Assembly: GCA_041648975.1 (NCBI GenBank)
Contig: JBAZNZ010000001.1
Coordinates: 40,961-104,960, forward strand
DNA: 64,000 bases
Direction: 5' to 3'
Source of the DNA: Candidatus Omnitrophota bacterium
Lineage (GTDB): Bacteria; Omnitrophota; Gorgyraeia; 2-01-FULL-45-10
Notes under the pieces: generated by a model
Seen by the model: the letters and a program-made list of their open reading frames with translations, nothing else
What the model was told of the DNA's origin: nothing
The model's database searches: none
Shown here: positions 2,202 to 54,207 of the stretch, one piece after another
Layout of the letters: every line of letters begins with the position of its first letter
Numbering within the stretch: position 1 is the stretch's first letter
Translations under genes and position numbers: made by a program

Positions 2202-3481
2202 AGTATCTCATAAAGAACGGACGCCTGATAGATCCGGCTAATTCGATCGACCAGGTATGCGATATTCTTATTGCGGACGGCCTGGTGGAAAAGATAGGCA
2301 AGGACCTGAACGGGAAAGCGGACGAGGCCATAGACGCTTCCGGCCATATCGTAGCGCCGGGATTTGTCGATATGCATACGCACCTGAGGGAGCCGGGCAG
2401 GGAGGACGAAGAGACCGTGCGCACCGGGACCCGTGCCGCGGTCAAGGGCGGGTTCACGAGCGTTGCCTGCATGCCGAATACGGAGCCGGCCATAGACGAC
2501 GGCAATACCGTCCGTGCGTTGAAGGCTATAATTAAGAAGGACGCGATGTGCAACGTCTTCATCGTCGGGGCGATCACCGAGGACAGGCTGGGGAGGAGCT
2601 TAAGCGACTTCAAAGGAATGAAGGCGGAAGGCATCGTGGGGATTTCCGACGACGGATCGCCGGTTGCCGACGAGAAGGTCATGCTGGAGGCGTTGAAAGA
2701 AGCGAAGAGAGACTCGTTAATACTTATAGCGCACTGCGAAGACGTCAGGCTCTCGGCGAACGGCGTGATAAATAAGAGTTTCACGGCTACGAAGATGGGC
2801 CTGCGCGGCATATCCAGGGAATCCGAATACGAGATCGTGAAACGCGACTTAGCTCTGGCGAAGAAGGCTCAGTCGCAGATCCATATCGCGCACGTTAGCT
2901 GCGCCGAATCGGTCGATATTATACGTAAAGCGAAAAAGGACGGCGTAAGAGCGAGCGCCGAGACGGCCCCGCATTATTTTTCCCTTACGGAAGAATGCTG
3001 CGTCACTTACGACACGAACACCAAGATGAACCCGCCGCTCAGGGCCAAAGAGGATGTGGAGGCGATAAAGAGGGCCTTATCCGACGGCACCATAGACGCG
3101 ATAGCCACAGATCACGCCCCGCATACGGATTCGGAGAAGGACGTGGAGTTCGACTTCGCGCCATTCGGCATAATAGGGCTCGAGACGGCGCTCGGCGTCG
3201 CGTTCATGGAGCTGGTCGAGCCGAAAACGATCTCGTGGAGCGGCCTGATAACAAAGATGTCCGTCAATCCGGCGAAGATACTGGGAATAGACAGAGGCAG
3301 CCTCGCGAAGGGGAAGGCTGCGGACATAGTGATAATAGATCCCGAAAAGGAATGGATATATAAGAAAGAGTCGATAGAATCGAAGTCGAGGAACTCGCCG
3401 TTCATAGGCTGGACGATGAGGGCAAAAGCGACGCACCTCTTCGTCGGCGGTAAGCTTGTAATGAAGGACGGCTCTATTTAA
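2198..3481 (+). CDS. pyrC: dihydroorotase (class I, 427 aa)
   Basis: DMHTHLREPG and DHAPH metal-binding motifs. The start overlaps the pyrB stop (ATGA). Confidence 0.9.
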   Translation: MKYLIKNGRLIDPANSIDQVCDILIADGLVEKIGKDLNGKADEAIDASGHIVAPGFVDMHTHLREPGREDEETVRTGTRAAVKGGFTSVACMPNTEPAIDDGNTVRALKAIIKKDAMCNVFIVGAITEDRLGRSLSDFKGMKAEGIVGISDDGSPVADEKVMLEALKEAKRDSLILIAHCEDVRLSANGVINKSFTATKMGLRGISRESEYEIVKRDLALAKKAQSQIHIAHVSCAESVDIIRKAKKDGVRASAETAPHYFSLTEECCVTYDTNTKMNPPLRAKEDVEAIKRALSDGTIDAIATDHAPHTDSEKDVEFDFAPFGIIGLETALGVAFMELVEPKTISWSGLITKMSVNPAKILGIDRGSLAKGKAADIVIIDPEKEWIYKKESIESKSRNSPFIGWTMRAKATHLFVGGKLVMKDGSI

Positions 3482-52711: not shown

Positions 52712-53032
52712 ATGGCCAGTTTCGAGGATTTTAAAAAACTGGAATTCAAGACAGCGAAGATAAAAGAGGTGAACGACCACCCTAATGCCGACAGGCTATA
52801 CGTGATAATGCTCGACGTGGGGGATAAGACAAAACAGGTCGTTGCAGGCATAAAGAACGCGTATAAGAAAGAGGATCTCGTCGGTCGCCAGGTCGTCCTG
52901 GTCGATAATCTCGATCCGGCTATGCTGCGCGGCGTGGAGAGCCAGGGCATGATACTGGCCGCTTCCGACGATAAGGGGATGGCGATAGTGACGCCCGACA
53001 AAGAGATGACGCCGGGGAGCGTCGTAAAGTAA
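52712..53032 (+). CDS. tRNA-binding protein (CsaA/EMAP-like domain)
   Basis: KIKEVNDHPNADRLYV...GIKNAY signature of the Myf/EMAP tRNA-binding fold. Confidence 0.7.
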   Translation: MASFEDFKKLEFKTAKIKEVNDHPNADRLYVIMLDVGDKTKQVVAGIKNAYKKEDLVGRQVVLVDNLDPAMLRGVESQGMILAASDDKGMAIVTPDKEMTPGSVVK

Positions 53033-53117
53033 AGTTTTGCGCGTCTGTCCTCCTTCGCTCTTCAGAGTGAGATTATGGTAGAGCTTCGGCGGGACTGGGC
53101 GCCGGAGTAAGAATGGA

Positions 53118-53233
53118 GCGCCTGTAGCTCAGTTGGATAGAGTATCTTCCGCCTATGCTGCACAGAAAAACAACACATGGCGGATCCGCCATGAATAGTT
53201 TTGAGTTGGGTTTAGGCGGAGGCTACGAACCAG
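53118..53233 (+). pseudogene. degenerate tRNA-Arg fragments (5' acceptor and D arm at 53118-53144; anticodon-loop 13-mer at 53221-53233) separated by a 76-nt insert
   Basis: GCGCCTGTAGCTCAGTTGGATAGAGTA matches the first 27 nt of tRNA-Arg at 53482 with 3 mismatches. GGCTACGAACCAG is identical to its anticodon region. No T arm or acceptor 3' strand follows. Confidence 0.5.
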
Positions 53234-53243
53234 AGTATGTTTT

Positions 53244-53504
53244 ATGTATAACGTGTATGCGTTGCTTAGTCTAAAAAATGGCAAGAGATATATCGGCTTT
53301 ACGTCCAAAACTCCGGAGTTGAGGTTGAAAGAGCATAACAAGGGATGCAACAGTTGGGCTCGCCAGAATAGGCCATTTGAACTTATTTATATGGAAGAGT
53401 GTGATACTTCAAAAGAAGCGAGAAATAGAGAAAAATTTCTCAAATCAGGTCAAGGTAGAAGGGAAATAGACAATGTTTTGCGCGCCCGTAGCTCAACTGG
53501 ATAG
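53244..53504 (+). CDS. GIY-YIG nuclease family protein whose 3' end overlaps tRNA-Arg
   Basis: VYALLSLKNGKRYIGFTSKTPELRLKEHN GIY-YIG motif. The last 7 codons and stop (TAG inside GGATAG of the D arm) are encoded by the tRNA. Confidence 0.7.
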   Translation: MYNVYALLSLKNGKRYIGFTSKTPELRLKEHNKGCNSWARQNRPFELIYMEECDTSKEARNREKFLKSGQGRREIDNVLRARSSTG

Positions 53505-53558
53505 AGTAACTGGCTACGAACCAGTAGGTTGGCCGTTCGAGCCGGCCCGGGCGCGCCA
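53482..53558 (+). tRNA. tRNA-Arg (anticodon ACG)
   Basis: Acceptor GCGCCCG/CGGGCGC, anticodon arm ACTGG-CTACGAA-CCAGT, T arm GGCCG-TTCGAGC-CGGCC, CCA encoded. Confidence 0.85.
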
Positions 53559-53574
53559 CTCTTGAAGAACATAT

Positions 53575-54039
53575 ATGACCAGGATCGACGAAATATACAT
53601 GACGGAGGCTTTGAGGGAGGCAAAGAAGGCCTTTGAAAAGGACGAAGTCCCCGTCGGAGCTGTAATAGTCCACAGCGGCAGGGTAATAGCCAGGGCACAT
53701 AACCAGATAAAGATGCTGAAGGACCCTACGGCGCACGCCGAGATGATAGCGGTCACGCAGGCCGCATCTTATCTGGGAAGCGAACGGTTGCTTGAGAGCG
53801 CGATCTATGTTACTATTGAGCCTTGTGCGATGTGCGCGGGCGCCCTTATCCTGGCAAGGGTGAATAGGTTGTGTTTTGGGGCCCCCGATGCTAAGACGGG
53901 CGCGTTCGGTTCCGTCCTGGATATCAATAAGAAGAAGCTGAACCACAGGATATCGGTAACAAAAGGCGTGTTGGAAGAAAGATGCGCCGGGATATTGAAA
54001 GAGTTCTTTAAGAAGAAACGAAATACAAAGTCTTTTTAG
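53575..54039 (+). CDS. tadA: tRNA-specific adenosine-34 deaminase TadA
   Basis: HAEMIAV...TIEPCAMCAGAL zinc-binding CDA motifs. 154 aa, typical TadA size. Confidence 0.8.
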   Translation: MTRIDEIYMTEALREAKKAFEKDEVPVGAVIVHSGRVIARAHNQIKMLKDPTAHAEMIAVTQAASYLGSERLLESAIYVTIEPCAMCAGALILARVNRLCFGAPDAKTGAFGSVLDINKKKLNHRISVTKGVLEERCAGILKEFFKKKRNTKSF

Positions 54040-54113
54040 ATGTAGTCCCTCGCATCATGAATTAGGCAATATATGCTCGGGACGATTTACCTCAAGTTAA
54101 ATGACAGTAAATC

Positions 54114-54207
54114 GGAGAGATCGCCTAGTGGTCTAGGGCAGCGGTTTGCTAAACCGCCATGCGCTTGAAAAGGTGCATCGAGAGTTCAAATCTCTCTCTC
54201 TCCGCCA
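54114..54207 (+). tRNA. tRNA-Ser (anticodon GCT)
   Basis: Acceptor GGAGAGA/TCTCTCC, anticodon arm GCGGT-TTGCTAA-ACCGC, long variable arm, T arm GAGAG-TTCAAAT-CTCTC, CCA encoded. Confidence 0.8.

Follow-up and report, generated by a model that had tools for sequence, protein, structure and literature searches.

A GIY-YIG nuclease gene and a double-hairpin module at a tRNA-Arg gene of an Omnitrophota bacterium: a probable small selfish element and its family

The stretch of DNA analyzed here (64,000 nucleotides of contig JBAZNZ010000001.1 from a Candidatus Omnitrophota bacterium, in the following called the window) carries at positions 53118-53558 a gene for a small GIY-YIG nuclease, which is located between a broken copy of a tRNA-Arg(ACG) gene and the intact gene and whose stop codon lies inside the latter. 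With a probability of roughly 65%, we interpret this locus as a small selfish, free-standing, Seg-like element that has the nuclease as its sole gene and that has probably settled inside the tRNA-Arg(ACG) transcription unit. This interpretation draws on a related locus without the element, on the recurrence of the same design at tRNA genes of other bacteria and on a conserved 30-nt double-hairpin module accompanying the nuclease gene.

Structure of the tRNA-Arg(ACG) locus

ARAGORN and Rfam (RF00005, 59.7 bits) agree on an intact tRNA-Arg(ACG) at 53482-53558 of the + strand, to which all features of the locus described here belong, and the coordinates given by a first-pass annotation of this DNA were confirmed. 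Upstream of this uninterrupted tRNA, 53118-53147 represents a displaced copy of tRNA-Arg positions 1-30 (26 of 30 nt identical to 53482-53511), covering the acceptor 5′ strand, the D arm, and the start of the anticodon stem. The first-pass annotation had recognized this copy at 53118-53144, where three mismatches to positions 1-27 were confirmed, and the similarity was found to extend to 53147. A second piece at 53221-53233 (GGCTACGAACCAG) is, as had also been noticed, identical to the anticodon region of the tRNA: it matches 53512-53524, i.e., positions 31-43 comprising the anticodon loop and the 3′ strand of the anticodon stem, at 13 of 13 nt, and the copy ends there. In line with the earlier description, no T arm follows, and the Rfam tRNA model sees no second tRNA at E ≤ 10. 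Local alignment of the 450 nt upstream with tRNA-Arg gave a score of 40 (z = 11.7), compared to a maximum of 23 among 1,000 shuffled sequences, and a chance origin of the tRNA fragment is therefore excluded. The same test revealed nothing comparable upstream of the other four tRNAs of the window.

The interruption between the two pieces amounts to 73 nt (53148-53220) and lies exactly between tRNA positions 30 and 31. The first-pass annotation had reported a 76-nt insert with a palindrome at this place; the palindrome was verified, the length was refined to 73 nt, and the insert turned out to be a double hairpin, the hallmark of the family of loci described below. Pattern matching resolved it into two adjacent hairpins forming a long-loop module, the first consisting of TCCGCC, a 25-nt loop, and GGCGGA (53148-53184) and the second of TCCGCC, a 24-nt loop, and GGCGGA (53185-53220). 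The palindrome, CATGGCGGATCCGCCATG at 53176-53193, is composed of the 3′ arm of hairpin 1 joined to the 5′ arm of hairpin 2.

A 10-nt spacer (53234-53243, read from the sequence) separates the tRNA fragment from the start codon of the UPF0213/Slx1-like GIY-YIG nuclease gene (53244-53504, 86 amino acids plus TAG). The earlier description of this open reading frame (ORF) was correct in its coordinates, its assignment (PF01541, E = 2e-16), its start 11 nt past the fragment, and its stop codon inside the tRNA. The final 23 nt of the ORF, including the TAG, are nt 1-23 of tRNA-Arg(ACG), so that the stop falls into the D loop. The ORF is placed between the tRNA fragment and the intact tRNA, outside any intron, and a search of 52900-53700 against Rfam (E ≤ 10) detected neither a group I intron nor any other family besides tRNA.

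To obtain relatives of this locus, metagenomes were scanned with the neighboring TadA protein. Among the 80 loci found, the order tRNA-Arg(ACG), tadA, tRNA-Ser is common, and none (0/80) contains a GIY-YIG gene. Locus L084 shares the gene order of the window (tRNA-binding-domain gene, tRNA-Arg(ACG), tadA) but lacks a nuclease gene. The 92-nt leader of L084 can be aligned with positions 53037-53117 of the window and then runs directly into an intact tRNA at the place where the window has the fragment, which identifies 53037-53117 as the native 5′ leader of the ancestral tRNA-Arg gene. This comparison shows that the window fragment is the displaced ancestral 5′ part of the tRNA, and that the functional tRNA now stands 364 nt further downstream, behind the ORF, in accordance with the 364 nt that the window has in addition to this element-free relative. 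Positions 1-43 of the ancestral tRNA remain beside the native leader, disabled by truncation and by the double hairpin between positions 30 and 31. Within the 364-nt insert, the GIY-YIG ORF is the sole gene, and no gene for a tyrosine or serine recombinase is present.

The ORF thus differs in presence and absence at the same locus among relatives, and the comparison with relatives lacking the nuclease gene, which had been proposed as a check, supports the earlier view that an insertion split an ancestral tRNA-Arg. For this locus, an insertion is supported by the empty site of L084 and by the recurring design of the family. The part of this view that needs widening concerns the replacement supplied by the insertion, which may have been a 5′ segment, as originally thought, or a whole tRNA copy.

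Regarding the neighborhood, tRNA-Arg(ACG) lies directly upstream of tadA in the window (53482-54207), and a gene with a tRNA-binding domain (52712-53032, PF01588) is found just upstream of the locus. The adjacency of tRNA-Arg(ACG) and tadA was observed in about 40 of the loci L083-L162, with tRNA-Ser(GCT) usually coming next. We take TadA to be the deaminase that edits A34 of tRNA-Arg(ACG).

The nuclease

The window protein matches PF01541 (E = 2.2e-16, 60.4 bits with a cut-off of 22.6) as a single domain comprising residues 1-69, and it is 100% identical to a protein from a Candidatus Omnitrophota metagenome-assembled genome. It contains all 15 residues that are invariant in an alignment of 24 family sequences, including Y5, Y16, G18, R27, H31, and E63, which presumably correspond to the catalytic positions of I-TevI. 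Profile searches against the PDB yielded 1ywl (2.9e-8) and 1zg2 (5.5e-8), with Slx1 and I-TevI being marginal. With a structural model of high confidence (predicted local distance difference test score, pLDDT, of 95), the top matches in Foldseek were 1zg2, Slx1 (4xlg, 7cq2, 6seh), and 1ywl, followed by I-TevI; the fold match to Slx1 reached a template modeling (TM) score of 0.63 at a root-mean-square deviation of 2.6-3.3 Å. The protein is a stand-alone catalytic domain on the UPF0213/YhbQ-Slx1 branch of the GIY-YIG nucleases, and its subfamily has a C-terminal motif of its own, EKFLKSGQGRK-LD. A search with PADLOC gave no match to a defense system, and the NCBIfam models returned only a sub-threshold match to a group I intron endonuclease. 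With the protein profile, 1.84 billion representatives yielded 2,756 clusters (E ≤ 1e-10).

Occurrence of the design at other tRNA genes

Scanning GTDB with the profile, at one genome per species, yielded 363 loci. The best 80 of these, together with L001 and L002, make up the set analyzed in the following, which comprises 81 distinct loci, L004 being a duplicate of L001. Their hosts are Patescibacteria, Omnitrophota, Chloroflexota, WOR-3, and others. The common design is a gene for a UPF0213/Slx1-like nuclease of approximately 80 residues that abuts the 5′ end of a tRNA gene. The closest homologs of the window element, L001 and L005 (Omnitrophota, tRNA-Arg TCG) and L002 (tRNA-Arg ACG), all follow it with the order tRNA 5′ part, two TCCGCC-N4-GGCGGA hairpins, a few tRNA bases, ATG, and ORF; the hairpins occupy the same position in the anticodon stem as in the window, and the ORF ends at the D-loop TAG of an intact tRNA. 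The element of L002 is preceded by the tail of another copy of the ORF.

An intact tRNA on the same strand, starting between -40 and +150 from the stop codon, was present in 58 of the 81 loci, and six more have a tRNA of that placement that contains a group I intron and was missed by ARAGORN. In nine loci the intact tRNA lies just upstream of the ORF, and in six of the remaining ones the sequence ends within 100 nt of the ORF stop. The stop codon is located inside the tRNA in 32 of the 58 loci and is then always TAG, at tRNA positions 8-10 in 27 and in the D loop in four loci. tRNA-Asn(GTT) is the most frequent host, next to tRNAs for Ala, Ile, Val, Arg, Pro, Phe, Met, and Lys, and at least eleven anticodon classes serve as hosts in total. 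Most loci possess a copy of the 5′ part of the same tRNA 40-130 nt upstream of the ATG, and the distance from the end of the nearest double hairpin to the ATG is 2-111 nt, in most cases 8-30 nt (58 loci).

The group I introns in the tRNA downstream of the ORF (RF00028, 71-95 bits) were located at 1689-2024 in L026, 1752-1986 in L047, 1760-2027 in L049, 748-1102 in L074, 1762-1970 in L075, and 1767-2070 in L076. These six tRNA genes have been colonized by both an intron and a nuclease/hairpin element, and the intron is separate from the ORF in each of them. In L017 (1-1466), the element resides in a tRNA cluster directly downstream of the end of a 16S rRNA gene, in the order small-subunit rRNA (1-238), tRNA-Ile (502), tRNA-Phe (760), ORF (1128-1385), and tRNA-Pro (1390). 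The protein of this locus is 91% identical to that of L025; both are found at the same tRNA-Pro, in genomes that are labeled as different phyla.

The double-hairpin module

The canonical module is 30 nt long and consists of two 15-nt hairpins of the form YNNGCC-N3-GGCNNR. Nearly every locus contains at least one copy, and loci failing this strict pattern carry mutated or long-loop versions. A search selecting on the invariant cores only returned 96 matches (71 unique) from 231 kb of family loci, while 268 kb of control loci gave no match. For each of the three outer base pairs in either stem, 66-71 of the 71 unique matches show Watson-Crick pairing, compared to 35-57 expected, with alternation between CG/AU and UA/CG, and G-T pairs are nearly absent from the stems (4 of 426 cells). 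A second covariation test agrees with this result; its input was partly selected for pairing. The orientation of the module is fixed, as some stems are found exclusively in hairpin 2 and the composition of position 1 differs from that of position 16.

For 62 of the 96 modules, the 8 + 8 nt flanking the module are contiguous in the neighboring intact tRNA, and these modules therefore represent precise 30-nt insertions accompanied by neither duplication nor deletion. Insertion points were found at tRNA positions 17|18, 28-30, 12|13, 8|9, and 36|37 and in the T arm. The base preceding the module is a pyrimidine in 86 of 86 cases, and each of the two junctions shows microhomology of one base. Up to a distance of about 500 nt from the ORF, modules were found only in tRNA-derived sequence, either in 5′ fragments ahead of the ORF or in 3′ fragments behind it. 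L059, L003, and L041 have two modules in full-length tRNA copies, and the mirror order, with the intact tRNA followed by the ORF and then by the broken copy, was seen as well. Modules nested in the loop of another module, as well as partial overlaps, were observed in L005 (1432-1485) and L030 (1443-1478).

The window module belongs to the long-loop subtype, which also occurs in L049, L079, and L041, and the loop of its hairpin 2 is homologous to the hairpin 2 loop of L075. It shares its position and its stems with the canonical 15-nt hairpins of L001, L002, and L005. When folded alone, it folds best as one long imperfect hairpin having the palindrome at 53176-53193 as its tip.

Several other descriptions of the module were considered and discarded. 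For the canonical module as a single long hairpin, or with loop-loop pairing, the observed pairing equals the expectation. The purine-rich loop 1 and the pyrimidine-rich loop 2 give no information on orientation, since this pattern is strand-symmetric. A REP-like genome-wide repeat is not in agreement with the motif occurring only at this locus in the 64-kb window, nor with the absence of the core from the 268 kb of controls. IS608-like guide pairing between the hairpin arms and the target was rejected as well, there being no consistent pattern apart from the one-base junction microhomology. Rfam contains no family covering the hairpin module, as judged from 28 family loci searched at the gathering score and one canonical locus at E ≤ 10; together with the search of the window region, these returned only tRNAs, group I introns, and one rRNA end.

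Copy number, exchange of tRNA hosts, and ORF-less relatives

The clearest case of multiplication is L065, a perfect tandem of two copies of a 294-nt unit composed of the module, 14 nt, the ORF, and tRNA positions 1-17, and further arrays exist in L055, L069, and L077. Overall, 20 of the 81 loci contain extra copies, some of which are decayed, while some are second genes of only 30-44% identity. The ORF is under strong purifying selection (ratio of nonsynonymous to synonymous substitutions, dN/dS, 0.07-0.18), and the proteins are 60-80% identical across phyla. The nearest neighbor of a protein is found at the same tRNA type in 34 of 57 cases versus 9.7 expected, which implies that lineages mostly keep their tRNA type and have repeatedly changed it.

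A fragment with hairpin but with no detectable GIY-YIG gene was encountered at five of about 115 control tRNAs (Arg-ACG or Ser), namely L093 (991-1108), L123 (1415-1477), L141 (125-316), L086 (about 1761-1861), and L147 (about 3090-3379). They consist of the first 13-16 nt of the tRNA, one or more GC hairpins (TCC/CCC...GGA/GGG), 30-180 nt, and the intact tRNA. The first-pass annotation had regarded the same fragment in relatives without the nuclease gene as evidence against an insertion; taken literally, such relatives exist in these five cases, but the fragments differ from that of the window. The most plausible view is that they are relics lacking the ORF or that a nuclease acting in trans produced them. 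L141 (1-316) has three copies of a 50-nt leader (ATGCGCACCTTGCGCTTA..AAGTACACATTAAGTAT), of which two precede the tRNA-Arg fragment and the third precedes the intact tRNA.

In L008 (1767-1960), the anticodon stem (CTGCC/GCAG) and the T arm of the intact tRNA-Asn differ from those of both hairpin-bearing broken copies (CT|GGC), which points to different alleles for the working tRNA and the broken copies of this locus, the working one possibly being an imported or resistant tRNA. A resistant allele as a general rule was dismissed: L008 has a base pair flipped at the insertion site, whereas the site is unchanged in L003 and in the window. Integration of the Campbell type with duplication of the leader was also considered and abandoned, with 20-nt leaders being identical at 8.2 of 20 positions compared to 5.5 in controls; long leader extensions occur only where the tail of an older ORF lies upstream.

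The family leaves further traces in databases and assemblies. Proteins of 204-214 amino acids with two copies of the domain (P0031, P0097, P0166) are fused tandem genes, and many database proteins have 20-50 extra N-terminal residues because their start was called through the hairpins. Several contigs (L178-L185) break about 200 nt upstream of the ORF, as is typical of assembly breaks at repeats.

Proposed mechanism and alternative explanations

In the scenario we favor for a selfish Seg-like element, the nuclease would break the DNA of a tRNA gene, and recombinational repair using short tRNA homology would copy the element, or the 30-nt module alone, into the broken gene. Such repair might also give rise to segmental duplications, as is the case with phage SegB, while selection would retain one uninterrupted tRNA copy. 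The hairpin module could mark or block the broken copy, either by destroying the target site or by breaking up the repeat that would otherwise delete the element. Judging from the geometry of the locus, the ORF would be transcribed from the resident tRNA promoter, and the cut of RNase P at tRNA +1 would remove its stop codon and thereby keep expression of the nuclease low.

A number of observations do not sit easily with this scenario. The evidence is wholly comparative and stems from metagenome assemblies. The 86 amino acids contain no DNA-binding domain and no Pfam domain besides PF01541, unlike Seg proteins and I-TevI, which makes the source of the specificity of the predicted enzyme puzzling. 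The ORF-less fragments with hairpins show that the ORF is not needed in cis for their persistence. In most loci the duplication starts close to tRNA +1, which would not be expected from plain homologous recombination. Since the intact tRNA keeps the sequence of the module site (AACT|GGCT), the simple logic of an insertion destroying its target fails to explain immunity. Finally, no carrier is apparent: nothing matched in cultured phage and plasmid records, and a single clear relative (43% identity, E = 3e-16) turned up among viral contigs.

An unlikely alternative is that the family moves as a structure-guided transposon and not by homing. In that case, the double hairpin would be a DNA end recognized as extruded hairpins or a cruciform, the Slx1-like nuclease would cut at its base, and the 30-nt module, alone or with the ORF, would be excised or copied and then inserted into tRNA-like DNA 3′ of a pyrimidine. 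An autonomous unit of roughly 300 nt would have the module as its 30-nt non-autonomous partner. The covariation of the hairpins, which affects the two stems separately and involves hardly any G-T pairs, would fit this idea, as would the pseudo-dyad symmetry of the module, which hints at a structure on both DNA strands, and the fact that Slx1, the nearest solved fold, cuts branched DNA. The same applies to the insertions themselves, which are precise, lack target duplications, lie 3′ of a pyrimidine throughout (86/86), and show one-base junction microhomology, and to the occurrence of several modules per broken tRNA and of modules nested in modules (L005, L003, L059). However, the modules belong to different subtypes depending on the tRNA position, and every subtype is conserved across genomes, which does not resemble recent jumping, and the confinement of modules to tRNA-derived sequence near the ORF gives no sign of free transposition. 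Moreover, the ORF is not flanked by one hairpin per end, and we know of no GIY-YIG transposase. It is likewise doubtful that the 30-nt double hairpin and the protein of approximately 80 residues constitute a new class of mobile DNA, and the step this would require, namely an Slx1-like nuclease that recognizes hairpin DNA and inserts a unit of approximately 300 nt (294 nt in L065) or the bare module, appears improbable to the same degree. If true, no autonomous or non-autonomous mobile elements smaller than these would be known, and the unexplained double-hairpin elements of mitochondria would gain a bacterial counterpart that comes with a candidate enzyme. Even less probable is a variant in which a transcript of fragment and hairpins guides the nuclease to the intact tRNA gene.

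The nuclease might also have been domesticated by the host for a function at tRNA genes, such as the resolution of transcription-replication conflicts or R-loops, with fragment and hairpins acting as a regulatory leader that couples its expression to transcription and processing of the tRNA. The strong purifying selection on the ORF, its constant orientation and close linkage to the tRNA, which contains its stop codon, the stability of the structure across samples of one population, and the ORF-less fragment-hairpin leaders at the same tRNA-Arg in three relatives would all be compatible with such a role. Nevertheless, we regard it as quite improbable in view of the patchy presence (0/80 TadA loci), the use of at least eleven anticodon classes as hosts, the tandem arrays, decayed copies, and second divergent genes at the same locus, and proteins that are 60-80% identical across phyla; broken copies on either side of the ORF furthermore show that the hairpin does not consistently belong to a 5′ leader. 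The first-pass annotation had itself offered a decayed tandem tRNA duplicate as the origin of the upstream fragment, in which case the GIY-YIG gene would be unrelated to it. Although tandem duplication of tRNA genes does occur, the fragment has diverged at 4 of 30 positions, and ORF-less fragments exist in relatives, this explanation is now highly improbable. It is already contradicted by the family-wide association of fragment, module, and ORF, which recur together in nearly all 81 loci, compared to a fragment at five of about 115 control tRNAs, and it does not agree with the empty site of L084 or with the same design of fragment, hairpins, ORF, and tRNA in the homologs. In addition, the interruptions are a conserved, structured 30-nt module and not the outcome of random decay.

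Relation to known systems

The selfish element we favor has its closest parallel in phages. SegB of phages T4 and T6 recognizes a conserved motif of tRNA genes, cuts inside these genes, homes into alleles without segB, and drives a recombination-dependent tandem amplification of segB and tRNA (PMC2330249; PMC13096335). The present element resembles SegB and other Seg systems in having a GIY-YIG gene among or beside tRNA genes and not in an intron, and the tandem units of L065, L055, L069, and L077 look like the outcome of SegB-driven amplification. In contrast to SegB, it is chromosomal and found in uncultured bacteria, its protein is only 80-86 amino acids long, comprises the catalytic domain only, and is nearer to UPF0213/Slx1 than to I-TevI/Seg, its gene overlaps the tRNA 5′ end, and a conserved double hairpin, unreported for SegB, is found in its broken tRNA copies. 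It differs from the endonucleases of tRNA group I introns in that the tRNA is duplicated and uninterrupted and gives no match to Intron_gpI.

tRNA-targeting integrases typically use the 3′ part of the tRNA. Genomic islands borne by integrases share with the present element that a partial tRNA repeat is left behind (PMC9897764). Here, however, the 5′ part is duplicated, the insert measures 364 nt and not kilobases, no integrase is present, and the partial copy is interrupted by hairpin modules.

Transposons of the IS200/IS605 type have hairpin-forming ends, insert 3′ of a short motif without target duplication, and have miniature derivatives. The hairpins, the lack of target duplication, and the very small size are common to both; the present element, by contrast, has no HUH (Y1) transposase, carries both hairpins on the same side of the ORF, and its insertions are confined to tRNA-derived DNA.

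The double-hairpin elements (DHEs) of fungal mitochondria are short, GC-rich, apparently mobile modules of two hairpins, which occur in intergenic regions and inside structural RNA genes and whose mechanism is unexplained (PMC10085805). The module described here agrees with DHEs in being GC-rich and two-hairpin, and fungal mitochondria are also rich in GIY-YIG genes; moreover, like them it consists of two adjacent GC-rich hairpins, is repeated, and is precisely present or absent. It differs from them in being bacterial, exactly 30 nt long, confined to sequence derived from tRNAs, and tightly linked to a single nuclease family. This comparison is one by description.

As for the protein, UPF0213/YhbQ and Slx1 provide its best matches in sequence (1ywl, 1zg2) and fold, and no genomic link of UPF0213 to tRNA genes was found in the literature. 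A description of the nuclease/hairpin family as a whole was found neither in the full-text literature, the scope of which did not include subscription-only papers, nor in Rfam, PADLOC, or phage and plasmid records.

Implications

A widespread selfish family of this kind would enter the biology of Patescibacteria, Omnitrophota, Chloroflexota, and their neighbors. It would live on essential tRNA genes without destroying them, and the solution it appears to have found is compact: the 5′ part of the tRNA is duplicated, the old copy is disabled by a hairpin plug, and the conserved TAG at tRNA positions 8-10 is borrowed as stop codon. The family accounts for a number of annotation problems, namely pseudo-tRNAs, ORF starts called too far upstream, contig breaks, and tRNA genes missed by finders. 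It would also provide a testable candidate enzyme for double-hairpin mini-elements, and it raises the question of how a domain of 80 residues without a DNA-binding module finds tRNA genes.

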